DNA from: Candidatus Omnitrophota bacterium
GTDB taxonomy: Bacteria > Omnitrophota > Gorgyraeia > Gygaellales > Profunditerraquicolaceae
Assembly (NCBI GenBank): GCA_016782485.1
Contig: JADHYK010000001.1
Coordinates: forward strand, 30,081-94,080
Reading direction: 5' to 3'
DNA: 64,000 nt
The number at the start of each line of letters is the position of its first letter. The stretch's first letter is position 1. Under the pieces are notes generated by a model. The model searched no databases. It was not told the DNA's origin and was given only the letters and a program-made list of their open reading frames with translations. This document shows positions 1-59,730 of this stretch, one piece after another. A program made the position numbers and the translations under genes.

Positions 1-451
1 CCGCCCCCGAAGCCGAAGTGACGATTCCGACGGAAAAAGGCATCAGCGGAAGCTCTCTTTTATGGGCAGGGTCAAATAAGCCTTCTTGGAAAAGTTTTTT
101 CTTCAGCTGTTCAAAGGCCAGTTGCTGGCTGCCTATGCCCTTAGGCTCAATCTTTCCGATATTCAGCTTATATTTTCCATGCGGCGGATAAACATCTATC
201 CTGCCGAAACAGATTGCCTTTAAGCCGTCTTCAATCTTAAACCTGACCTCTTTGTTTGCCTGCCGGAACATCGCCGCGGGCAAAACTGCCCCTTCGTCTT
301 TTAAAGAAAAGTAGAAGTGACCTTTGGCATCAGCTTTAAAATTAGAAACCTCCCCCTCCACCCAGACCTGCTCGAAGGTGTTTTCCAGAATTAATTTTAT
401 ATCCTGGGTGAGTTGGGAGACGGTATAGATATGCCGGGGGTTATCCTTCAT
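1..451 (-). CDS. xseA: Exodeoxyribonuclease VII large subunit, N-terminal part (gene continues beyond window start)
   Basis: Reverse translation from ATG at 451..449 gives MKDNPRHIYTVSQLTQDIKLILENTFEQVWVEGEVSNFKADAKGHFYFSLKDEGAVLPAAMFRQANKEV..., the OB-fold N-terminus of XseA. The ATG overlaps the stop of the upstream gene (ATGA). Confidence 0.8.
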   Translation of the reverse strand, partial: MKDNPRHIYTVSQLTQDIKLILENTFEQVWVEGEVSNFKADAKGHFYFSLKDEGAVLPAAMFRQANKEVRFKIEDGLKAICFGRIDVYPPHGKYKLNIGKIEPKGIGSQQLAFEQLKKKLFQEGLFDPAHKRELPLMPFSVGIVTSASGA

Positions 452-2166
452 AGCTTCTTTTCAAGAATAATCATCTGCACAGAATAGGGAGTTAATTGCA
501 GGGCCTCCTGATAAGATCCGTCTGCATTTATTTCTTTTTCTTCCAGAGGGACGAATTTACAATCCCTGCTGCAGGAAGAATCTACGGCAAACCTCTGGTA
601 CGTATAATCCCCTTTTGTAAGGTTATTGATATTTAAATTTATGCGGCGGGCTGAAAGACTAAGCCTTGCGGCTTTCTCGTATAACTGCTTTGCCCTCTTG
701 AGCAATGCCTTAATCTTTTTGGTTGCGCGCACAGCGGCAATCTCAATCTCGCCGGAGGAAATTTTTTCTATTGTCTCGCGTTTGATAAGGTTGAGCAGGA
801 TTTTTCTTTCTGCCTTTTTTAAAGTGGCGATGTTGCGCGATAAATAGTTATTAACTATCTCCGGGTCGATGTAGTTATAAATAATAACCGCCAATCCCTC
901 TTTTCTCCTGGTGGCGATAACCCCGCAGAAGTCATCTTCGAATTTCGTTAAAAACATATCCGGCCCGAGATTCTCCAGCATCCTGAAGACGTTATAGGTG
1001 GCCTTGGGGCTGCCCCGGTACCCTGAATACTCCGGATCAAAGCTAAATATACCGACGTTACGCACCACGCCCTCTTTGTTATTCTTAAAATCCTCCAGGC
1101 AAAAATAGACCTGATAATCAATACCTGTCTCGTACATATTCTTGATGCGGGCAGGAATATAGCTGGCAGCGATATAAGATTTTTCCTTCCTCTCGGGCAG
1201 GACATTGGCGCTGCGGTCGTAATTCCATTCGTCGACTATTAAAGGTATATTCCTGTCAAATTTAAAATAAGAAAGCCACTCCCGTATCAGTTTGACCGCG
1301 GTCTTTTTATAAGCGGTGTTTTCCTTCTCTACGGCCTGGTCGGTAGAAAATCCGTGCCAGCTGATAAAATCCAGGGGCAGCCGGTAGCGGTAGCAGAATT
1401 TAATCAGTTCGTAGATCAGGCTTTTCTGGGGAGTCACGATAGTATTGCCGTCGAGATTCTGAAACCACCAGCTTACTGCCGGCCCGCCTATCGGGATATG
1501 CATCTTGGTCTCTGCCTTTAGCTCTTTTATGCCCTCTGCGACCGCGCGGTAAAGGTTAAAATACTCCTGTTTTCTGCCTAAAAAGAAATCGTCCAGATCC
1601 GGGGCATTCCATATTTCATACCAGACATTATACTTTTTATCGCAGCTTAACTCCCGGACCGTAGACTTAATTAACTCCTTAAATGCCTTCAGATTCCAGG
1701 GCGGGCTTTTTTTATCCAAGACCTTGCCTAAACCGGCCGGCGTACCAAAGATGTCCAGAATGACTATGCCTCCGGCATCGCTTATGGACTTAATGATGCT
1801 TTCGTAATTGCCAAGAAGCGCTGTCTGCGCCTCTTTATCCTTGGAAAGCTGGTTTATCTCCCAGAGGCTGTATTGCAGCCGATAAACCCCCCTGAAGCCG
1901 ATCTCCTGCCGCCAGATATCCACCGCCTCTTTGGCCGCCATCGCCTGCGGCCAGCCGGGGTCGCGATGAAATCCCCGGCCGCTTAAATCAACGCCGGGCC
2001 TGAATACCTTTGGCAGGGGGACGGTATTAGAGGCAGCATCGAGATTAATTACCAGGCTGTCATCCTGGGCGAATAGTCCACAGCGTCCAGCAGTCCACAG
2101 TCCACAGACAAAGACCATAATAAACAAGAAAAAACATACTAGGGCCTTCTGGCTTAAATTTAACAT
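448..2166 (-). CDS. Exported GH clan A (GH5/GH39-like) TIM-barrel protein with a basic coiled-coil C-terminal tail. The NEP acid/base motif reads NAP
   Basis: N-terminal signal-peptide-like hydrophobic segment ending AFAQ. Motif YEIWNAPD at the clan GH-A (F/Y)E(I/V)WNEP position, and IVDEWN at the nucleophile position. 572 aa. Confidence 0.45.
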   Translation of the reverse strand: MLNLSQKALVCFFLFIMVFVCGLWTAGRCGLFAQDDSLVINLDAASNTVPLPKVFRPGVDLSGRGFHRDPGWPQAMAAKEAVDIWRQEIGFRGVYRLQYSLWEINQLSKDKEAQTALLGNYESIIKSISDAGGIVILDIFGTPAGLGKVLDKKSPPWNLKAFKELIKSTVRELSCDKKYNVWYEIWNAPDLDDFFLGRKQEYFNLYRAVAEGIKELKAETKMHIPIGGPAVSWWFQNLDGNTIVTPQKSLIYELIKFCYRYRLPLDFISWHGFSTDQAVEKENTAYKKTAVKLIREWLSYFKFDRNIPLIVDEWNYDRSANVLPERKEKSYIAASYIPARIKNMYETGIDYQVYFCLEDFKNNKEGVVRNVGIFSFDPEYSGYRGSPKATYNVFRMLENLGPDMFLTKFEDDFCGVIATRRKEGLAVIIYNYIDPEIVNNYLSRNIATLKKAERKILLNLIKRETIEKISSGEIEIAAVRATKKIKALLKRAKQLYEKAARLSLSARRINLNINNLTKGDYTYQRFAVDSSCSRDCKFVPLEEKEINADGSYQEALQLTPYSVQMIILEKKL

Positions 2167-11047: not shown

Positions 11048-13117
11048 TTAGCGCAACTTGGCGCTAAAAACTTCTTCCAGCAGCCTGCAGATCAGGCTAT
11101 GGACGGGGTTAACCTCTGCGTCGCTGAGTGTGCGTTCGCCGGAACGATAAAAACAGGAGATGGTCAGGCCGATATTGCCGGGAGGGATCTGGCTGCCCCG
11201 GTAATAATCCGCGACCTTCATACTGCAGAGAAGCGGCCGGCCTCTCTCCAGCGCCGCCTCCAACACCTTCTTTATCGGAACCTCCCTGCTCAATACCACG
11301 CTTATATCCCTGGTGATTCCCGGATATTTGGGGGGCGCGACAAAGGTCTTTGCCGGCCTGGCGTGGGCAAGGAGCCTGTCTAAATAAAGTTCGGCGGCAA
11401 CCACTTCTTTATTCTTGATATCCAACCTCTCTAAAAGCTCCTTGCGTAAAATAAAAATTTCGCCTGTTCTCTCCGTGCCGGCATAGATGCCGATCGAAGC
11501 AGCATTTTCTTTGGCATGAAAAGCGCAGCTACCCACTCCCAGCCTCTCGAATAATACCTCAACTATCCCTTTTAAATGCAGAAGCCCGAATCTTTCCTTA
11601 ACCAGGCCCTGGCCCAAAAGATGCGCCTTTGTCCCGCAGAGGGCTATGCCCAACATTAACTCTTCTTTTGGCCCGGAGGCGGAAGAAGAAAATACCTTTG
11701 CCAGCTCAAAAATATTCACGTACTCCTGCTGGTGATTAAGGTTATAGCCAATGCGCGCGGCAATACTCGGTACAAGATGCGGCCTCAAAACCTCCTGTTC
11801 CCTGCTAAGCGGATTCAAGATTCCGATCGGCTCAGGCTCATCCGGCAGCATAAAACCATTCAATAATTCCTTATCAACTAGTCCGTAGGTAATTGCCTCG
11901 CTCAATCCCAGTCCGGCAAGCATGTTCTTTAGCGCAGAGACCAGCTCCCTTTTTCCCGGGCGGAGTGAATGCGGCACTAAAAGCGGCAGGGTGGTAGGGA
12001 TTTTATCAAAGCCGTGTATCCGGGCTGTCTCCTCAACCAGATCTATCTGTGCCTTGATATCCTGCCTGTGCGAAGGAACTCCGGCTATAAAGCTATCCCT
12101 GCCAGTGGCTGCTACTTTAAACCCCAGGCCGATTAAAATCTTCTTTATCCTGGCGGGGGAGATCTTGGTTCCCAAAATCTTATTCGTATCCGCTACGCTC
12201 AGGCGGATGCTCTTTTGCTTCGCCCTGGCCTGGCCCGAACTCTTTGCCAAAATACATTCTCCCTGCGCCAAGGTGCGGATTAATTCTGCCGCGCAAGCGG
12301 AGGCAGGCCCAACCGCCCCCCAATCAATGCCTCGTTCAAACCTGTACGCCGAATCACTCTCTAGCTTTAGCTTTTGCCTTGCCTGACGCACGGTTATGGG
12401 ATTAAATACCGCTGCCTCTAAAAGGATGTTCCTTGTGCCGTCGGATACTTGCGTGTCGTTACCGCCCATGATGCCTGCGATTGCTACCGGCCCTCCTTTA
12501 TCTGCAATAACCAGGATGCCCTTATCCAGCAGCCGCTCCTCTCCGTCGATGGTAACGATCTTTTCCTGCTCTTTTGCCCGGCGTACATATATCTCTGCCG
12601 CCGCGTTTTGAGCTAATCTGTCTAAATCAAAGGCATGTAAAGGCTGGCCCCTCTCAAACAAAAGGTAATTAGTGATATCCACAACGTTGTTTATGCTGCG
12701 GCAACCGACGAGCTCCAGCCTTTCTTTAAGCCAGGCAGGCGAAGGCCCCACTTTTACATCTTTGATTATCTTTGCGGTGTATAAAGGACAGCCTTTTTTG
12801 TCCTCAATATTTATTTTTAATATGTTAGCGTTTAGCGGATAGCGTTTAGCGTATAGGCGACCTTTACTATGCGCTCTACGCTCTACGCTATACGCTCGAA
12901 TTTTCTTATTAGTAATTGCCGCCACTTCTCTTGCGATGCCGATAATGCTTAAACAATCCGGGCGGTTAGAGGTCACCTCTATCTCAAAGACAAAATCTCC
13001 TGCCTGCTTTTGGAGCGCAACCACCTCCAGCCCTGCCATGGTCAGCCTCTCAGCAAGCGCCTCTGCCGCCAGATCGATCCTTACAAACTCCTTCAACCAA
13101 TTATAGGTTACTTTCAT
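11048..13117 (-). CDS. pheT: Phenylalanine--tRNA ligase beta subunit (short form, 689 aa) carrying an in-frame repeat insertion
   Basis: tRNA-binding, B3/4, B5 and FDX-ACB domain patterns. Residues AYSVERRAHSKGRLYAKRYPLNA are encoded by the 70-bp repeat. Confidence 0.9.
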   Translation of the reverse strand: MKVTYNWLKEFVRIDLAAEALAERLTMAGLEVVALQKQAGDFVFEIEVTSNRPDCLSIIGIAREVAAITNKKIRAYSVERRAHSKGRLYAKRYPLNANILKINIEDKKGCPLYTAKIIKDVKVGPSPAWLKERLELVGCRSINNVVDITNYLLFERGQPLHAFDLDRLAQNAAAEIYVRRAKEQEKIVTIDGEERLLDKGILVIADKGGPVAIAGIMGGNDTQVSDGTRNILLEAAVFNPITVRQARQKLKLESDSAYRFERGIDWGAVGPASACAAELIRTLAQGECILAKSSGQARAKQKSIRLSVADTNKILGTKISPARIKKILIGLGFKVAATGRDSFIAGVPSHRQDIKAQIDLVEETARIHGFDKIPTTLPLLVPHSLRPGKRELVSALKNMLAGLGLSEAITYGLVDKELLNGFMLPDEPEPIGILNPLSREQEVLRPHLVPSIAARIGYNLNHQQEYVNIFELAKVFSSSASGPKEELMLGIALCGTKAHLLGQGLVKERFGLLHLKGIVEVLFERLGVGSCAFHAKENAASIGIYAGTERTGEIFILRKELLERLDIKNKEVVAAELYLDRLLAHARPAKTFVAPPKYPGITRDISVVLSREVPIKKVLEAALERGRPLLCSMKVADYYRGSQIPPGNIGLTISCFYRSGERTLSDAEVNPVHSLICRLLEEVFSAKLR
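12827..12896 (-). mobile_element. 70-bp imperfect-palindromic element inserted in frame in pheT. Identical (70/70) to the copy in pyrK
   Basis: On the coding strand AGCGTATAGCGTAGAGCGTAGAGCGCATAGTAAAGGTCGCCTATACGCTAAACGCTATCCGCTAAACGCT. The 5' 30 nt and 3' 30 nt are about 80% reverse-complementary around a TAAAGGTCGCC core. Confidence 0.8.
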
Positions 13118-13119
13118 GC

Positions 13120-14133
13120 TTAGAACTGCCTCAAAAATCTTAAATCATTCTCAAAAAATAATCTAATATCGTTAATGCCGTATTTGAGCATGGCGATTCT
13201 TTCAATCCCTAAGCCAAAGGCAAAACCCGTATATTTCTTGGGGTCGTAACCGACGTGCTTAAAGACGGCCGGATGTATCATGCCCGCGCCCAATATCTCC
13301 AGCCACCCCTTCCTGCCGCAGACAGAACAGCCTTTGCCGTTGCAGATAATGCAACGGATATCTACTTCTGCCGAGGGCTCGGTAAAAGGAAAGAAATGCG
13401 GCCGGAAACGCATTTTAATCTCCTGCCCAAAAACCGCTTTGGCAAGAATCTCTAAGGCCCCCTTCAAATCGGAAAATTTTATGCTCTTATCCACCATAAA
13501 ACCTTCAATCTGATGGAACATAAAGGAATGACTGGCATCCACGGCATCCGGACGGTATACGCGGCCGGGGACTACTATCGCCAGCGGAGGTTTATGCGCC
13601 TTCATCGCCCTTATCTGCACAGGCGAAGTATGGCTGCGTAGCAATAGCCGATTATTTAAATAAAAGGTATCAAAGGCGTCCCGCGAAGGATGCTCCAGGG
13701 GGATATTTAAAGCGGTAAAGTTGTTATATTCGCTTTCAATCTCCGGCCCTTCCACGACGGAAAAGCCGATCCTCATAAATATGGCGCAAATCTCATCGAT
13801 GACCCTGGTCAAAGGATGCAGATGGCCCAGCTCCTGCGTAATCCCCGGCAGGCCGATATCCGCTGGCCTTGAAACAGCGCCCTCGCCGTTCAAGGAATCG
13901 GCGAACGATTTCTCTTTTTCCTCGATCAGGGAAACTGCCCGCTTCTTTAAGGCGTTGACCGCCTGGCCGAAGGCAGCCCTTTCTTCTTTCTTTAGCCCGG
14001 GGATGGAACCGGTTAATTGCGCAATGATCCCTTTTCTCCCCAGGTATTTCAGCCTGAGCTCCTCCAGGGAAACGGCAGAACCGATATTCTGGAAATCGGA
14101 TTCTATTTGAATTTTAACTGCGCCAATATCCAT
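13120..14133 (-). CDS. pheS: Phenylalanine--tRNA ligase alpha subunit
   Basis: Class II aaRS motifs: FRPHFFPFTEPSAEVD, GAGMIHP, GFAFGLGIERIAM. Confidence 0.9.
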   Translation of the reverse strand: MDIGAVKIQIESDFQNIGSAVSLEELRLKYLGRKGIIAQLTGSIPGLKKEERAAFGQAVNALKKRAVSLIEEKEKSFADSLNGEGAVSRPADIGLPGITQELGHLHPLTRVIDEICAIFMRIGFSVVEGPEIESEYNNFTALNIPLEHPSRDAFDTFYLNNRLLLRSHTSPVQIRAMKAHKPPLAIVVPGRVYRPDAVDASHSFMFHQIEGFMVDKSIKFSDLKGALEILAKAVFGQEIKMRFRPHFFPFTEPSAEVDIRCIICNGKGCSVCGRKGWLEILGAGMIHPAVFKHVGYDPKKYTGFAFGLGIERIAMLKYGINDIRLFFENDLRFLRQF

Positions 14134-14612
14134 ATCAAACCTAGTGCCCCCAATAAAACAACTGCGGCGTTTCTCTTGCCTGTATTAAAACTGGATGCCT
14201 CGGGATTATGCCTGCCCGGGGCTATCTTCTCTATCTCGAAGGCATGTATATCAAGGTCACCGCCGTGTTCGGGGCAGGCACGGTGAAAAACTCCGATAAC
14301 CTCAATCAGATCGCCCGTTGAGCGATAACTGCCCGCCAGCAAATCTGCCTGTTTCAATAAATGCCCCTCCAGCCATACGCCGATTGCCTTTTCGCCGTCG
14401 GTTACATTTATCCAGGCAAAATTGCCGCGCCGCATTATATCACCGATAACTTCGCCGGCATAGGCGATTGTTTTACCGTCGTACGCCTGGGCATTCTCTA
14501 TTAATTCTCGGGCGCTGACCGGCTGGGCAAACGCTGTGTAATGTGTAAAGTGTAATGTGTAAAGCAAAATTACATTAAACATTACACATTTAACATTAAA
14601 CAGGTTTCTCAT
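14103..14612 (-). CDS. Hypothetical exported/membrane-anchored protein. Its signal-peptide-like N-terminus is encoded by a palindromic repeat
   Basis: Start taken as ATG 14612..14610, 1 nt after the trkH stop. The track ORF's extra 9 codons overlap trkH. N-terminus MRNLFNVKCVMFNVILLYTLHFTHYTAFA|QP has an AxA-like cleavage site. C-terminal hydrophobic helix. No recognisable family. Confidence 0.4.
   Translation of the reverse strand: MRNLFNVKCVMFNVILLYTLHFTHYTAFAQPVSARELIENAQAYDGKTIAYAGEVIGDIMRRGNFAWINVTDGEKAIGVWLEGHLLKQADLLAGSYRSTGDLIEVIGVFHRACPEHGGDLDIHAFEIEKIAPGRHNPEASSFNTGKRNAAVVLLGALGLIWILAQLKFK
14536..14601. repeat. Second heptamer-based palindromic element (GTGTAAT/GTGTAAA repeats opposing CATTACAC/CATTAAAC) lying inside a CDS
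   Basis: GTGTAATGTGTAAAGTGTAATGTGTAAAGCAAAATTACATTAAACATTACACATTTAACATTAAAC. Same architecture as the pheT/pyrK element with different sequence. Encodes residues 4-25 of the 14103..14612 product. Confidence 0.6.
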
Positions 14613-14613
14613 C

Positions 14614-16119
14614 TTACTTACCTTTGATGACCGCAACAAAGACCCCGATTAAAGTAAATATAGACATAAACTCAAGACGGCCCGCCCACATCTGAAAGAT
14701 GTAGATGTATTTAAGCGCAGCCGGCATAGCGGCGTTAGTAATCCCGCAGGATAATCCTACGTTGGCTGAGGCAGAGGTAGATTCGAATAAAGAATCTATA
14801 AAAGGATACCCGAAGCAGCTTCCGGCAACCGCGCCAAACCAATAAAGGGCAAAGTATGCCAGGGTGATTAAAAACGCCAGCCGCACCTGTTTATCCTCCA
14901 GAAATATCTCCTTGATATGGTGGTATTTCTGCACCACAATTGCTCTCTCCGGAAGGATAATGCGTTTTATGTCCTCTAACAGCGCCTTAAAAATTATCCC
15001 CAGGCGCAGCATCTTGATTGCGCCGGTGGTGGAACAGGCCGCACCTCCCAGGGACATGGCGCAAATTATGCCCACGCGGGCAAGGTGGTTCCATTCGTTA
15101 ACAAACTGGGCGGCGTAAATAGTCTGGTATCCGGTGCCGGTATGGGCGGAAATCAACTGGTAAAAACCTTTGCGGAATAACACTGCCAGCCCCGGATAGG
15201 TACCCAGCTGGGTTAACCCGAAGCCGGTAATAAAAAAGAGGACCATAATGGAGATAAAAAGCGTAACCATCTCTATATTCCTGACTATCTCTCTGCGGTT
15301 GCCCGTCCAGAGGTGGTAATGCAGTTTGAAGTTAAAGGCCCCCAGAATCATTATAATAATGGTGATTATTTCAAAGGGGAGGCTGTGGTAATAAAGTATA
15401 TTTTGTGACTGCGGGGCAAACCCCCCGGTATCAAAAGCGGCCATGAATATACAGACGCCGTGGAAAAAGGCGCTGGCGGGCCTTATCCCGTTGGCCATCC
15501 CCGCTATCGCCAGGGCAGAGGTCCCCAAAATCAGATAGACGATGCTGACAAACCAGATAAACCTGCTGGTATGTATGATATTAGGCAATATCCTTTCATC
15601 ACGGGCCTCGCCCACATACATTTTAAACGCGCCGGAAAAACCTTTAATAAAAAAGGAAAGCGCGACAATTACTATGCCCTGCCCTCCGATAAAAAGGATC
15701 AGGTGCCTCCAAAGGTTGTGTGTAAAAGAGAGGTGGTCAAGGTCCTGGACTAAAATCAGTCCGGTGGTGGCAAACCCCGACATTGAATCAAAGCAGGCAT
15801 CCAGGAATGACTTCCAGTGCCCGCTTAAATATAACGGGATCGCCCCCAATAACATGGCCACCAGCCATGATAAGGAGACTACCACCATCCCCTGCATCCA
15901 GTTTAATTCTTTTTCGGTAGAGCATGCCCTGGTCAGGAGCAGGCCGGCTATCAGGGCAATCTCTATGGCGATTAAAAAATCCAGGACGGGGCTTGCCTCT
16001 CGGAAGAATACCAGGCCGGCAAAGACGGGGACAAACATCGAAAGGGCAAGGCCGAGGATAATCTTGCCTAAATAATAACCGATCACTACAAAATCCTGCG
16101 GCCGGGGCTTTAATATCAT
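14614..16119 (-). CDS. trkH: Trk/Ktr-type K+ transporter membrane subunit
   Basis: TrkH/KtrB family, 501 aa. Repeated M-P-M segments with selectivity-filter-like GFATTG, GGQG and SANVGLS. Confidence 0.85.
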   Translation of the reverse strand: MILKPRPQDFVVIGYYLGKIILGLALSMFVPVFAGLVFFREASPVLDFLIAIEIALIAGLLLTRACSTEKELNWMQGMVVVSLSWLVAMLLGAIPLYLSGHWKSFLDACFDSMSGFATTGLILVQDLDHLSFTHNLWRHLILFIGGQGIVIVALSFFIKGFSGAFKMYVGEARDERILPNIIHTSRFIWFVSIVYLILGTSALAIAGMANGIRPASAFFHGVCIFMAAFDTGGFAPQSQNILYYHSLPFEIITIIIMILGAFNFKLHYHLWTGNRREIVRNIEMVTLFISIMVLFFITGFGLTQLGTYPGLAVLFRKGFYQLISAHTGTGYQTIYAAQFVNEWNHLARVGIICAMSLGGAACSTTGAIKMLRLGIIFKALLEDIKRIILPERAIVVQKYHHIKEIFLEDKQVRLAFLITLAYFALYWFGAVAGSCFGYPFIDSLFESTSASANVGLSCGITNAAMPAALKYIYIFQMWAGRLEFMSIFTLIGVFVAVIKGK

Positions 16120-52145: not shown

Positions 52146-52968
52146 AGCAAAGCTGTTATATAATAAGAGAGAAAAGGGGAGTTTTTTTCGTCTGAAGATC
52201 CTTGCCCCGGCTATAGCCGCAAGTTGCCTGCCCGGGCAATTTGTCACCCTGAGATTAACCGACGGCTGCCAGCCGTTGTTAAGAAGGCCTTTTAGCATAC
52301 ACAGGATAAGCGGGTCCGGGGTTGAAATACTTTATGAGCTGGTCGGCCGGGGGACGCAAATCCTATCGCAGAAGAGGCCGGGGGAGTACCTGGATATAAT
52401 CGGGCCGCTGGGTAACGGCTTTAACTATCCGCTATCCGCTATCCGCTATCCGCTATCAATTTTGGTTGCCGGCGGAATGGGAGTCGCGCCGCTATTGTTT
52501 CTGGCAGAAAGGTTAGCGTATAGCGTAGAGCGTAGAGCGCATAGTAAAGGTCGCCTATACGCTAAACGCTATCCGCTAAACGCTTTTGTATTGATCGGCG
52601 CTAAGAATAAAAATCAAATCTTGTGCGAAAAGGAATTTAGAAAATTTGGTTGCACGGTAAAGATCGCCACCGATGACGGCTCTAAGGGCTATAAAGGCAA
52701 AGTCACGCAATTATTGCAGCACTTACTATCGACTATCGACCATCGACTATCGACCATCTACGGCTGCGGCCCGCGCCCTATGCTCAAAGAGATCAGCCGC
52801 ATCTGTCAAAGGCGTAATCTAGCGGCGCAACTTTCACTGGAAGAGCATATGGCCTGCGGCATCGGCGCCTGCCTGGGCTGCGCAGTAGATACAAAAGAGG
52901 GTTATAAGACGGTCTGTAAAGACGGGCCGGTATTTGATGCGGACCGGATAATCTGGGAGGCAGAATGA
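52117..52968 (+). CDS. pyrK: Dihydroorotate dehydrogenase (class 1B) electron-transfer subunit, carrying three in-frame repeat insertions
   Basis: FAD/NAD-binding (RPFSI, GPLGNGF, VAGGMGVAPL) and a C-terminal 2Fe-2S Cys cluster (CGIGACLGCAV). Inserted peptides: NYPLSAIRYPLS, AYSVERRAHSKGRLYAKRYPLNA, STIDHRLSTI. Confidence 0.85.
   Translation: MVSKKKLQFKAKLLYNKREKGSFFRLKILAPAIAASCLPGQFVTLRLTDGCQPLLRRPFSIHRISGSGVEILYELVGRGTQILSQKRPGEYLDIIGPLGNGFNYPLSAIRYPLSILVAGGMGVAPLLFLAERLAYSVERRAHSKGRLYAKRYPLNAFVLIGAKNKNQILCEKEFRKFGCTVKIATDDGSKGYKGKVTQLLQHLLSTIDHRLSTIYGCGPRPMLKEISRICQRRNLAAQLSLEEHMACGIGACLGCAVDTKEGYKTVCKDGPVFDADRIIWEAE
52425..52457 (+). repeat. Tandem heptamer array (CTATCCG x4.7) inside pyrK, in frame
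   Basis: CTATCCGCTATCCGCTATCCGCTATCCGCTATC. The motif also occurs at the 3' end of the 70-bp element (CGCTATCCGCT). Confidence 0.7.
52515..52584 (+). mobile_element. 70-bp imperfect-palindromic element inserted in frame in pyrK, identical to the pheT copy
   Basis: 70/70 nt identical to the reverse complement of 12827..12896. Both copies are in the same reading frame relative to the element and encode the same peptide. Confidence 0.8.
52725..52758 (+). repeat. Tandem 8/7-mer array (CTATCGAC/CATCGAC) inside pyrK, in frame
   Basis: ACTATCGACTATCGACCATCGACTATCGACCATC, encoding STIDHRLSTI. Confidence 0.6.
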
Positions 52969-56050: not shown

Positions 56051-57786
56051 GCCGTATAGTCAAGATTAACGGCAATATGGTTACGGTTGAGCTGGACAAC
56101 TTTGTCGTCCAGAACGAGGTTGCCTATATCGTCCACGGGAAAGAGCGCCTGAAGTCCGAAGTTATACGCATCAAAGGCAGGCTTGCCGAAATGCAGGTAT
56201 ATGAGAATACGGGGGGATTAAAGATCGGCGAGAAGGTCGAATTCACCAGCGAACTTCTTTCCGTGGAGCTGGGGCCGGGGTTATTGGGCCAGATATTCGA
56301 CGGGCTGCAGAACCCCCTGCCGCAGCTGGCAGAGAAGTGCGGCTTCTTCCTGCAGAGAGGTGTTTATGTGCATGCCCTTGAAGAGCGTTCAGAATGGCAG
56401 TTTACACCGCTGGCAAAAGCCGGCGATAGGTTGCGGGCAGGGGACAGATTGGGTTTTGTCCCGGAAAAAATATTCAAGCATTTTATTATGGTGCCCTTTA
56501 ATCTTTCCGGCAACCTGGAGGTAACTAGTATCGCCGAGCCGGGAAAATATAATTTAAAAGACACAGTGGCAAAACTGAAAGACGGCTCCGGCAGGCATTA
56601 TGAATGTTTCTTAAGGCAGTCCTGGCCGGTAAAAATCCCCATCGAGGCATATTCCGAAAAATTAATGCCCGTTCAGCCCCTGGTTACTAAAATGCGGCTG
56701 ATCGATTCGCTCTTTCCGATTGCCCGCGGCGGGACCTATTGCATACCCGGACCTTTCGGCGCAGGAAAGACCGTTCTGCAGCAGCTGACCAGCCGCCACG
56801 CCGAGGCGGACATAGTAGTTATCGCTGCCTGCGGGGAGCGCGCAGGCGAGGTAGTAGAGACCTTAAAGACCTTTCCGAAGATAACCGATCTTATGACAGG
56901 CAGGCCCTTAAGCGACCGTACGGTGATTATCTGCAATACAAGCTCTATGCCGGTTGCGGCGCGCGAATCAAGCGTGTACACCGCAGTCACCATCGCCGAA
57001 TATTACCGTCAGATGGGGTTGAATGTTTTACTTTTGGCGGATTCCACTTCGCGGTGGGCGCAGGCGATGCGGGAGATGTCCGGCCGCCTTGAGGAGATTC
57101 CCGGGGAAGAGGCCTTCCCCGCATATCTTGAATCGCGCATCGCCTCTTTTTATGAAAGGGCAGGGGTAGTCAGGCTGCGCGACGGGACAACGGGTTCGGT
57201 TACTATCGGCGGGACGGTAAGCCCTGCCGGAGGAAATTTTGAAGAGCCGGTTACGCAGGCGACGCTAAAGGTGGTGGGTGCCTTTCACGGGCTTTCGCGC
57301 GAACGCTCCAATGCCCGGCGTTACCCGGCGATAGACCCGCTGATCAGCTGGAGCAAATACAGGAGTTTTATCGATGAAAAGGTCAGCCGTAAAGGCCATC
57401 AGATTCTGCGCAAGAGCCACGACGTAGCCCAGATGATGAAGGTAGTCGGAGAAGAGGGCACTGCCCTTTATGACTACCTGGATTATCTTAAGGGTGAATT
57501 TTTCGATTTTGTTTACCTGCAGCAGAACGCTTTTGATAAAGTTGATGAGGCAACGCCGCAACAGAGGCAGGTTTACGTATTTAATTTTATCTACCGGATT
57601 CTGGAGGCGGAGTTTGCCCTGGAGGATAAAGAAAAGGCGCTGCATTTCTTCCAGCGCTTGAGGCAACTCTTTCGCGGATGGAATTCCGCGCAATGGAATT
57701 CCGCGGAGTTTAAGAATATAGAAGAGGAGATTTCTTTGTTCATAGAGGCAAAGCTCAAAAAACAGGACCAACCGATCAATGCATAA
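56032..57786 (+). CDS. atpA: V-type ATP synthase catalytic subunit A
   Basis: [13 protein letters not shown]-loop, non-homologous region, 584 aa. Contains a tandem 14-mer (57677..57705) encoding [11 protein letters not shown]. Confidence 0.95.
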
Positions 57787-59086
57787 AGTTTATACCAACA
57801 TTATTCAGATCGCCGGGGATGTTATTACGGTGGAGGCCGAAGGCGTAGGTTATATGGAGATTGCCCGGGTTTCTACGCGGCGCGGCACCTCCCTCGCGCA
57901 GGTCATCCGCCTCGACGGTAAAAAGGTCTCCCTGCAGGTTTTTGCCGGCAGCAGGGGCGTTTCGACGGGGGACGAGGTGCGTTTCCTGGGGCATCCGATG
58001 CGCATTGCCAGCGGCAGCGACCTCCTGGGCCGCATCTTTAACGGCAGCGGAGCGGCGATGGATAAGGGGCCTGCCTTGAGCCAAAATTTGGTTGATATAG
58101 GGGGGCCGTCGGTCAATCCGGTGAAAAGAATTATCCCCAATAAAATGGTGCGCACCGGGATTCCGATGATAGACCTCTTTAACTCGCTGGTGGAATCGCA
58201 GAAACTACCGGTATTTTCGGTAGCCGGAGAGCCCTACAACGGATTATTGGCCAGGATTGCCATACAGGCGGAAGTAGATATTATAATTTTGGGGGGCATG
58301 GGCTTAAAGTATGACGACTACCTGTTCTTCAGAGATACCCTGCAAAAACAGGGGGCGCTGTCGCGTTCGATATTCTTTATACATACTGCCGCAGACCCGA
58401 CGGTAGAGTGCCTCCTGGTGCCAGACATCAGCTTAGCGGTAGCAGAGCAGTTTGCCTTAAACGGAAAACGCGTCCTGGTTTTGCTTACGGATATGACAAA
58501 TTTTTGCGATGCGCTGAAAGAAATCTCCATTACTATGGAGCAGGTCCCCTCAAACCGCGGATACCCCGGAGACTTATACAGCCAGCTGGCTGCGCGTTAT
58601 GAGAAGGCAGTTGATTTCGAGGGGGCAGGTTCAATTACCATATTGGCCGCCACCACCATGCCCGGCGATGATGTCACCCATCCGGTGCCGGATAATACCG
58701 GTTATATTACCGAAGGGCAATTCTATCTTAAGGGCGGGGTAATAGAGCCCTTTGGCTCGTTAAGCCGTTTAAAGCAACAGGTTAACGGCAAGACGCGCGC
58801 TGACCATCGTACGATAATGGATACAATGATTCAGTTGTTTGCCAGTTATCGCGAAGCCCTGGAAAAACAATCTATGGGGTTTCAGATGAGTTCGTGGGAT
58901 AACAAGCTGCTGAAATACGGCAGGCTTTTTGAAAGCGAAATGATGTCGCTTGAGGTTAATATCTCCCTTGAGAACGCGCTTGACCGCGGGTGGCAGCTTT
59001 TAGCGGAGTGTTTCACTCCTGAAGAGACCGGTATAAAGAAGTCGATGATAGAGCAGTATTGGCCAAAAACAGTAGTTAGTAGATAG
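57779..59086 (+). CDS. atpB: V-type ATP synthase subunit B
   Basis: 435 aa, regulatory B subunit. [18 protein letters not shown]. Confidence 0.95.
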
Positions 59087-59100
59087 TAGTTGGTAGATAG
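59071..59100 (+). repeat. Heptamer tandem repeat (AGTAGTT AGTAGAT AGTAGTT GGTAGAT) spanning the atpB stop and the atpB-atpD spacer
   Basis: Read from sequence. Gives TAG stops in several frames. Confidence 0.6.
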
Positions 59101-59115: not shown

Positions 59116-59730
59116 ATGAAGGTTAAATTTACAAAAGGGGAATTAAAAAGGCAGAGGGATGCCCTGAGGCAGTATGAACGCTATCTGCCCACCTTGCAGC
59201 TTAAGAAACAACAGTTACAGGCGGAAATTCTGCGCCAGTTGATTGCCCTGGAAGAAAAAAGAAGGGATGAAGTAAAGAGAAGGCATAGTATAGAAAATTG
59301 GGCAGGGCTTTTCAGCGACCCAGGAATAGACATAAGCCGCTGGATCAGGCCTAAAGAAATCGTCTGCAACAGAAGAAATATTGCCGGTGTTGACCTTCCT
59401 GTTTTTGGCCAGGTTAAATTTGATCTTGCGGAGTATGACCTGTTCAGTGCGCCCCTGTGGGTTGACAATGCCATCGAGGCAGTCAGGTCGCTGGCTTGCC
59501 TCCGTGAAGAGATAAAGGTACTGGAAAAAGCAATGGCGGTCTTAAGGCGCGAACTTAGAATTACGACGCAACGGGTCAATCTTTTTGAAAAGGTAAAAAT
59601 CCCCGAGGCAGAGGAGGCGATACGGCTGATTAAGATTTATATCGGCGACCAGATGGCCAATGCCGTCGGCCGCAGCAAAATCGCCAAAAGGAAAATAGAA
59701 GGGGTTGTTCTCGAAGAGGTGGCGGCATGA
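59116..59730 (+). CDS. atpD: V-type ATP synthase subunit D
   Basis: 204 aa coiled-coil central-stalk protein. MKVKFTKGELKRQRDALRQYERYLPTLQLKKQQLQ. Confidence 0.8.
   Translation: MKVKFTKGELKRQRDALRQYERYLPTLQLKKQQLQAEILRQLIALEEKRRDEVKRRHSIENWAGLFSDPGIDISRWIRPKEIVCNRRNIAGVDLPVFGQVKFDLAEYDLFSAPLWVDNAIEAVRSLACLREEIKVLEKAMAVLRRELRITTQRVNLFEKVKIPEAEEAIRLIKIYIGDQMANAVGRSKIAKRKIEGVVLEEVAA

Follow-up and report, generated by a model that had tools for sequence, protein, structure and literature searches.

Introduction

Rickettsia palindromic elements (RPEs) are palindromic repeats that insert in frame into unrelated, often housekeeping, genes (PMC10969869), and heptamers are specifically over-represented among bacterial simple sequence repeats (SSRs) (PMC4692102, PMC4679880). 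Here we describe an element in a stretch of DNA from a Candidatus Omnitrophota bacterium (contig JADHYK010000001.1, positions 30,081 to 94,080 of the forward strand; "the window" hereafter means this whole stretch of 64,000 nt), which comes nearest to an RPE in behaviour and nearest to bacterial heptamer repeats in construction. It is an imperfect palindrome of GTGTAAW heptamers inside the 5' end of a small gene coding for a predicted exported OB-fold protein (the OB gene), situated between trkH and pheS. We consider it probable that this palindrome is one of a dispersed class of heptamer-hairpin repeats, residing in a permissive slot and co-opted, through its translation, as the core of a signal peptide. 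Members of the class are hairpins of ~70-80 bp in which some four tandem 7-nt units are accompanied by an inverted copy, and heptamer repeats were found in every Omnitrophota locus set examined.

The likeness to RPEs lies in a short dispersed palindrome adding a peptide at a tolerated site, as seen here for a 23-aa peptide in pheT and pyrK and for the translated palindrome of the OB gene. Besides, the hairpin-forming palindrome, its in-frame position in a host open reading frame (ORF) and the presence of orthologues without it are traits of RPEs and of miniature inverted-repeat transposable elements. In contrast, RPEs are ~150 bp long and defined by sequence families, whereas the element described here is built of tandem 7-nt units; the two have no sequence relationship and occur in different phyla. 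As far as we are aware, RPEs have not been reported to occupy fixed slots in which the occupant switches family.

Heptameric SSRs such as the cyanobacterial STRR, the Xanthomonas GGGAATC and the Beggiatoaceae/cyanobacterial TAACTGA repeats also consist of tandem 7-nt units (~2-6, often four); they occur at many loci per genome, with occasional inverted pairs able to form stem-loops (PMC4692102, PMC4679880). However, these repeats use essentially one unit per genome and are overwhelmingly intergenic, often just upstream of start codons, whereas many unit families coexist here, inverted arms are frequent, and the arrays that a stricter scan detected in the window are coding and translated. REP/REPIN sequences, which are mobilised by RAYTs, and PARCELs share single traits only with the present element. 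The former resemble it as short imperfect palindromes with many copies, lineage-specific family sequences and a constant architecture; in the account of PMC3733652, REPs are extragenic, 20-40 bp long and carry a GTAG or CGTC tag, whereas by inspection the element here has neither tag, and it is intragenic and heptamer-built. PARCELs are dyad-symmetric coding DNA that spreads within and between genomes, often in membrane-targeted proteins (PMC2996958), and dyad symmetry of coding DNA, spread and membrane-targeted hosts are the points of likeness, but PARCELs represent a 25-residue motif in long tandem tracts of accessory ORFs and differ in this from single hairpins that are built of heptamers and lie in housekeeping genes or signal peptides. 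A non-exhaustive literature search turned up no report of translated hairpins built of heptamers that occupy fixed slots in Omnitrophota.

Results and discussion

Architecture of the GTGTAAW palindrome

In the 79-bp palindrome (14529-14607, in window positions), a short spacer separates four GTGTAAW heptamers from a degenerate inverted arm, as follows.

14529..14607, no strand assigned: whole palindrome with outer stem AAACGCTG / CAGGTTT (from sequence, arm pairing and folding)
14536..14563, plus strand: well-preserved arm GTGTAAT GTGTAAA GTGTAAT GTGTAAA, encoding LYTLHFTHYT
14564..14571, no strand assigned: spacer or loop, GCAAAATT on the plus strand and AATTTTGC on the mRNA, encoding part of I-L-L
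14572..14602, plus strand: degenerate inverted arm, mRNA 5' arm GTTTAAT GTTAAAT GTGTAAT GTTTAAT GTAA, encoding FNVKCVMFNV
14526..14612, minus strand: codons 1-29, predicted from the sequence as Sec-type signal peptide MRNLFNVKCVMFNVILLYTLHFTHYTAFA, with presumed cleavage before Q30

Tandem Repeats Finder reported two period-7 arrays, at 14535-14562 (4.0 copies, 90% matches) and 14572-14602 (4.4 copies, 83% matches), together with a period-14 array at 14536-14564 (2.1 copies, 100% matches); the head-to-tail 7-nt copies (4.0 and 4.4) are the trait held in common with STRR-type SSRs. The inverted arms, 14534-14567 and 14570-14603, are 34 nt each, 79% complementary and separated by 2 nt. A sequence-only reading of this DNA had quoted the stretch at 14536-14601 (plus strand), which matched exactly, and its ORF 14103..14612 (minus strand, 169 aa) with the peptide NLFNVKCVMFNVILLYTLHFTHYTAFA followed by QP was likewise found as it had stated.

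Folding of the mRNA strand gave -26.8 kcal/mol, compared with -14.3 +/- 2.8 in shuffled sequences (z = -4.5), and z = -4.7 was obtained for the element folded as DNA. In the predicted mRNA fold, the hairpin begins 6 nt past the A of the start codon, and the AUG and the AAGG motif stay unpaired. Rfam covariance models had no match at E <= 1 within 12600-14900, and a terminator/promoter scan found nothing at the element and no terminator-like signature. When a 21-nt array probe was searched through the 64-kb window with up to 3 mismatches, the sole match was the array itself, with 0 expected from 100 shuffles.

Translation into a predicted signal peptide

The element makes up codons 3-28 of its host gene, and the strongest pairing extends over codons 5-26, which constitute the hydrophobic core and the c-region of a signal-peptide-like N-terminus. 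Basic residues are present at R2 and K8, and A27-F28-A29|Q30 is conserved among orthologues; the AxA-type site before QP proposed in the sequence-only reading is A-F-A|Q, with AxA|Q(P/S) retained across orthologues. Moreover, the end AxA|Q(P/S)(I/V)SS is common to orthologues whose N-termini are otherwise unrelated. A basic n-region, a hydrophobic core, AxA at -3/-1 and the conserved mature N-terminus QP[IV]SS are all features of Sec-type signals cleaved by signal peptidase I, and the N-terminus would direct export as such a signal. In contrast to ordinary signals, the core and c-region derive here from a repeat hairpin, and the core shows lower hydrophobicity and more Asn/Thr/His/Tyr than the cores of orthologues with ordinary signals (Kyte-Doolittle maximum over 11 residues 2.23, compared with 2.35-2.84).

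Because the GTGTAAW unit contains TAA, a perfect array of it has a stop in every frame; the complement, WTTACAC, is free of stops. The well-preserved arm forms the 3' arm of the mRNA (minus) strand, (TTTACAC/ATTACAC)x2, and is stop-free in every frame. One of the six reading frames through the element is open, namely that of the host gene, because the TAA-bearing arm has degenerated: its departures from GTGTAAW hold every TAA out of frame, whereas an idealised perfect palindrome would translate to MRNLCVMCKV*. We surmise that elements persist only where the encoded peptide is tolerated, and a signal peptide may tolerate this one because the stop-free arm reads as a Leu/Phe/Tyr/Thr-rich sequence.

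Conservation of the element among orthologues

Eleven distinct orthologues (~50-78% amino acid identity to the window protein) hold the GTGTAAW element codon for codon, with the same number of units and an intact frame in all 11, and the peptide FNVKCVMFNV-ILL-YTLHFTHYT recurs across many orthologues. An assembly artefact was ruled out, as the element recurs across independent assemblies. The proposal of the sequence-only reading that a repeat had been exapted as, or inserted into, a secretion signal therefore stands as far as the element encodes a signal-peptide-like N-terminus with predicted export, but not as a private or recent insertion, given that 11 orthologues keep the same element and boundaries. 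The element has held its slot across a broad set of lineages.

For the 11 bearers, the element (codons 5-26) has a nucleotide identity of 0.87, compared with 0.64 outside it in the gene; conserved degenerate residues use identical codons at a frequency of 0.86 in the element and 0.50 elsewhere in the gene, and third codon positions are conserved at 0.93, compared with 0.72 in the adjoining flanks. Nucleotide conservation is thus highest in what is normally the fastest-evolving part of a secreted protein, and more than the peptide alone is being kept. Conservation is higher in paired columns (0.937) than in unpaired ones (0.871), and in the main helix 95.5% of cells are paired across bearers, with 3 pairs changed on both sides. 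The excess conservation may reflect maintenance of the stem-loop, either by selection on the mRNA hairpin, in which case initiation may depend on ribosomes terminating at trkH, or by homogenisation against other genomic copies of the family.

The motif AAACGCT, located at 14529-14535, had been put forward as a junction shared with the pheT/pyrK element, and this claim fell. On the coding strand the motif reads GCG TTT, the Ala-Phe of the AxA site, and among bearers it is found only in the window and in the closest bearer, L204; the others have GCCTAT, GTTTTT, GCATCT and further sequences at this position. The window contains 7 occurrences on the plus strand and 3 on the minus strand, with ~3.9 expected per strand, and 4 of these 10 are repeat units inside the pheT/pyrK element. 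A role as a shared insertion signal was accordingly rejected, the motif being not conserved among bearers and in part simply repeat units of the pheT/pyrK element.

A 5'-end slot with changing occupants

At a threshold of at least 18 of 21 positions in a period-7 self-match, 32 of 68 orthologues carry an array in their 5' region, whereas any other period from 4 to 12 was found in at most 1 of 68, and a control region of the same gene gave none. Altogether 22 canonical unit sequences occur among these 32 orthologues. Most orthologues have an array of one family or another in the slot, and the units include ACTTTAC, TACTCTC, AGATTAC, AAACCCA, ACTATCG, AAGCTCA, AGCTATC, AAGGTCA and GTGCAGT. The closest relative, L205 (78% amino acid identity), has an ACTATCG array between the same conserved flanks; the units of L205 and the window differ at 4 of 7 positions without intermediates, and the two share the loop TAATTTTG despite their different arms. 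More distant orthologues carry ordinary signal peptides. In many occupants, an A-rich first arm encodes a Lys-rich n-region and a T-rich second arm the hydrophobic core. The 5' region folds at z < -3 in 13 of the 68 orthologues and at z < -2 in 27, and many are without structure (z ~0).

We were curious to know whether the hairpin might primarily be a cis-regulatory mRNA or DNA structure of the trkH-OB-pheST operon, serving translational coupling, RNase processing or stabilisation, or protein binding, with the heptamers and the signal peptide being secondary. The conservation of synonymous sites confined to the element, the higher conservation of its paired columns and the frequent folding of orthologous 5' regions (27 of 68 at z < -2) speak for this possibility, as does the layout at the start of the gene, where the ATG lies 1 nt past the trkH stop in all orthologues examined and the stem begins at +6, leaving the AUG and the AAGG motif unpaired. 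However, close relatives carry a quite different element, many orthologues combine an ordinary signal peptide with z ~0, and like hairpins lie mid-gene in pheT and pyrK, where control of initiation is implausible; no Rfam match or terminator-like signature was obtained in the searches above, and covariation is weak. We therefore regard a primarily regulatory hairpin as unlikely.

A plain native signal peptide of low complexity, repetitive by chance and involving no repeat element, is very improbable. It would agree with the same N-terminal peptide in orthologues and with the single copy in the window, but leaves unaccounted for the exact 7-nt periodicity with no other period enriched, the complementarity of the arms (z = -4.5), the conservation of synonymous sites, which greatly exceeds that in the remainder of the gene, the further heptamer arrays that occupy this position in other orthologues, and the same-unit arrays and palindromes elsewhere in Omnitrophota genomes. 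The sequence-only reading had itself reserved this explanation for the case of no copies anywhere together with orthologues of the same N-terminus; the latter is what 11 orthologues have, whereas copies do exist, as TTACACW palindromes occur in other Omnitrophota. The comparison of orthologues, 32 of 68 of which hold a near-perfect heptamer array at this position, points to a wider repeat class and not to a one-off low-complexity peptide. Overall, the interpretation offered by that reading is partly supported.

Classically, a contingency locus has an array of non-triplet units within the 5' coding part of a gene for a surface or exported protein. Heptamer repeats are mentioned in connection with phase variation in PMC12721329. 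Here, gaining or losing a single 7-nt unit would cause a frameshift and turn the exported protein on or off, and both the unit length, which is not a multiple of three, and the position of the array fit this scheme. There are, however, only four units, whose alternating A/T variants give an effective period of 14 x 2, unit number and frame are unchanged in 11 of 11 bearers, and the same class also resides in pheT, pheS and pyrK, essential genes that could not be switched off without lethal effect. Hence, a phase-variable locus has next to no chance of being the right explanation. The regulatory hairpin, the low-complexity peptide and the phase switch are each less well supported than a dispersed repeat that was co-opted as a signal-peptide core.

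Heptamer arrays in pheT, pheS and pyrK

In the window, period 7 is represented by 4 arrays and each of the other periods from 4 to 12 by 0; for 387 kb of orthologous loci, the counts are 55 arrays of period 7 and at most 8 of any other period. A stricter scan of the window gave five arrays, all of them coding, with one in pheT, one in the OB gene and three in pyrK; altogether, six or more arrays of period 7, with several types of unit, are present in the 64-kb window. As proposed in the sequence-only reading, the architecture of the GTGTAAW palindrome is shared with an element of different sequence in pheT and pyrK; in both, some four heptamers in tandem are combined with a spacer and an inverted arm.

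12827..12896, minus strand: sister TAGCGTW palindrome, in frame in pheT, encoding YSVERRAHSKGRLYAKRYPLNA (from Tandem Repeats Finder and comparison)
52515..52584, plus strand: second copy of the TAGCGTW palindrome, in frame in pyrK, identical to the pheT copy at 70 of 70 nt
L014 3873-3907, L019 3951-3983, L023 3871-3896, L068 3933-3963 and L071 3866-3897: examples of arrays in the pheS slot of orthologous loci

The unrelated essential genes pheT and pyrK thus both encode the 23-aa peptide YSVERRAHSKGRLYAKRYPLNA from a TAGCGTW palindrome. Among pyrK orthologues, the same insert is present at this site in some and the site is empty in others, including one at 76% identity, and the closest orthologue (77%) has a different insert there. 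Two further arrays were located in pyrK, at 52425-52457 (CTATCCG, encoding NYPLSAIRYPLS) and 52725-52758 (ACTATCG, encoding LLSTIDHRLSTIY). The consensus LSTIDYRLSTIYACGP, which matches LLSTIDHRLSTIY, recurs in many aligned Omnitrophota pyrK orthologues, indicating that an enzyme can stably contain a segment encoded by such an array.

Outside the OB gene, the arrays of the orthologous loci concentrate in the pheT linker and in pheS, with many unit types in each. The pheT linker slot follows AREVAAITGKKLK and ranges in length from 32 to 48 aa, and the units in the pheS slot, between FDTFYL and LLRSHT, vary by genome. Several of the arrays at the fixed sites in pheT, pheS and pyrK have inverted arms. 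In addition, different genomes carry the ACTATCG (LSTIDYRLST) and GTCCACA (VCGLWT / STVHSPQ) families repeatedly, at the OB signal peptide, the pheT linker, pheS and pyrK.

Two other arrays of the window were observed besides these. A second array-encoded signal peptide is found in the ORF 448..2166 (minus strand), where TGTGGAC units at 2075-2107 encode ...FVCGLWTAGRCGLFAQ|DDS with partial coverage; this array has no inverted partner (fold z = 0), and its unit family is also present in L071 (OB signal peptide and pheS) and L022 (pheT). The period-7 array AGTAGTT AGTAGAT AGTAGTT GGTAGAT at 59071-59100 provides the end codons and the stop of the ORF 57779..59086 as well as spacer before the ORF 59116..59730.

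TTACACW arrays in other genomes

A scan for TTACACW with one genome per species returned more than 120 arrays, 80 of which are listed (L084-L163). Among the matches listed are 13 loci from 10 Omnitrophota metagenome-assembled genomes (MAGs), two of which hold several copies, and these Omnitrophota copies are mostly intergenic palindromes at unrelated sites. The matches listed also include arrays, often near an inverted GTGTAAW arm, from Paludibacteraceae/Bacteroidales, Planctomycetia, Verrucomicrobia/Kiritimatiellae, candidate-phyla-radiation (CPR) bacteria and Synechococcus; in one of them, from Planctomycetia (L144), the array encodes the signal peptide MVKKIIILFTIFFTLYTLHFTLIYAA, and the other arm lies upstream of the start codon.

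Dispersal was judged from DNA only because the peptide queries were too short or uninformative. A HMMER search with the 31-aa N-terminus against 1.84 billion representatives gave no match at E <= 0.001, the query being too short, and a 50-aa concatenation of two element peptides gave no candidate, an uninformative outcome as the source protein in the database was also missed.

Some Omnitrophota MAGs (L100, L112, L117, L123, L154 and L157) contain a longer composite of GTGTAAT/TTACAC units, GTGTAATG..CAAAAG..TTACACCCGCATTACAC..TTACACWTTACAC, which occurs on three contigs of one MAG (VGKK01) and may be a structured RNA or a larger repeat. Near-identical GTGTAAT palindromes adjoin tRNA genes at two loci: at ~6150-6250 of L129, ~70 nt from tRNA-Ile, and at ~6070-6140 of L133, between tRNA-Gly and tRNA-Lys.

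Origin and turnover of the elements

We surmise that heptamer-hairpin elements enter slots, or replace one another there, by copying between sites, through transposition or ectopic gene conversion, and would not arise afresh. Copying is suggested by the identical copies in unrelated genes, by the families that recur across slots and by the abrupt change of occupant from one close relative to another. The main rival is origin and turnover in place. In this scenario, polymerase slippage in a 7-nt register, template switching to form the inverted arm and concerted evolution of the unit would act on a permissive, slippage-prone ancestral slot without any movement. The slots in the OB gene, pheT, pheS and pyrK are indeed fixed and old, being present in orthologues that are ~50-80% identical, the element boundaries are constant, and the loop TAATTTTG is common to the window and L205 despite the differences in the arms. 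Such an origin also fits the over-representation of heptameric repeats in many bacteria, the hypothesis of slippage related to the polymerase footprint and the Xanthomonas arrays, which likewise peak at four units (PMC4692102). On the other hand, it does not readily accommodate the pheT and pyrK copies, identical at 70 of 70 nt in unrelated genes of one genome, the recurrence of unit families at non-homologous slots and in unrelated genomes, or the units of close relatives that differ at 4 of 7 positions without intermediates, and the same unit number in 11 of 11 bearers shows no sign of active slippage. We thus give origin in place a real but minor chance.

Several observations weigh against a dispersed, mobile repeat as the source of the signal-peptide core. 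The GTGTAAW palindrome is present once only in the 64-kb window. No target-site duplication, arm-independent terminal inverted repeat or transposase was recognised, and no duplication was evident in the flanks of the GTGTAAW element or of the pheT/pyrK copies; no systematic search for such features was made. The boundaries of the element are identical in all bearers, for which vertical inheritance is a simpler explanation than repeated insertion. Moreover, pheS identity among bearers (0.69-0.79) is much like that to non-bearers (0.73-0.80), so that bearers form no distinct clade, and this star-like radiation does not separate ancestral retention from re-acquisition; in a neighbour-joining tree of the 135-aa mature domain, resolution was too poor for mapping gains and losses. 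Because most pairs are invariant, covariation supports the hairpin weakly, and 15 of 500 shuffles reach the observed score; hairpin scores are inflated in some orthologues because peptides that are first Lys-rich and then hydrophobic are compositionally A-rich and then T-rich. Finally, the TTACACW arrays in many phyla could reflect convergence rather than relatedness.

The host gene and its neighbours

The host gene and the genes on either side of it are as follows.

14103..14612, minus strand: host gene (OB gene), 169 aa, with an N-terminal helix, an OB-fold barrel (~48-131) and a C-terminal membrane helix (144-168) (from ORF, homologues, AlphaFold and Foldseek)
14614..16119, minus strand: trkH, directly upstream in the same operon, with a Shine-Dalgarno-like AAGG motif for the host gene in its final codons
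13120..14133, minus strand: pheS, directly downstream, with the FDTFYL/LLRSHT heptamer site vacant in the window

The host ORF is a real gene, with 723 homologues, conserved synteny (rplT-trkA-trkA-trkH-ORF-pheS-pheT) and an AlphaFold model of mean pLDDT 86.6, and an identical protein is annotated in a Candidatus Omnitrophica MAG. The model comprises a helix (residues 2-27), a beta-barrel (~48-131) and a hydrophobic C-terminal helix (144-168). The fold was named via this model and Foldseek because searches of the host protein against Pfam, NCBIfam and PDB sequences gave no significant family; in Foldseek the barrel matches the OB domain that binds the anticodon in Lys/Asp/Asn-tRNA synthetases (E ~1e-6). 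At its 3' end the gene overlaps the start of pheS by 31 nt (14103-14133). Two alternative starts were rejected, a TTG at 14639, which overlaps trkH, and an internal ATG (Met11), which would lose the conserved basic n-region. Across Omnitrophota, K+ transport and Phe-tRNA synthetase genes thus tightly enclose the gene for a small OB-fold protein with predicted export and a C-terminal membrane helix.

Implications

In-frame palindromic repeats have been described mainly in Rickettsia and heptamer repeats as intergenic; both are combined here in a poorly known uncultured phylum, where hairpins of 7-nt units are translated into proteins, occupy fixed positions in essential genes and switch family between close relatives. 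Within a family, these hairpins are better conserved at the DNA level than their host genes. The OB gene offers a concrete case of a repeat supplying a predicted protein-targeting signal.

As a further speculation, which we think improbable, the fixed slots in pheS, pheT, pyrK and signal peptides might receive interchangeable heptamer-hairpin cassettes that are swapped by a dedicated machinery measuring 7-nt units. If so, cassette palindromes would create or renew signal peptides, the A-rich arm providing a Lys-rich n-region and the T-rich complement the hydrophobic core, and translation or export would be linked to the gene upstream by way of the mRNA hairpin so formed at the gene start. What holds the hairpins in place and what sets the 7-nt ruler are testable questions raised by these data. 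For the annotation and alignment of Omnitrophota genomes, such segments resemble insertions or low-complexity sequence and could mislead homology searches and phylogenies.

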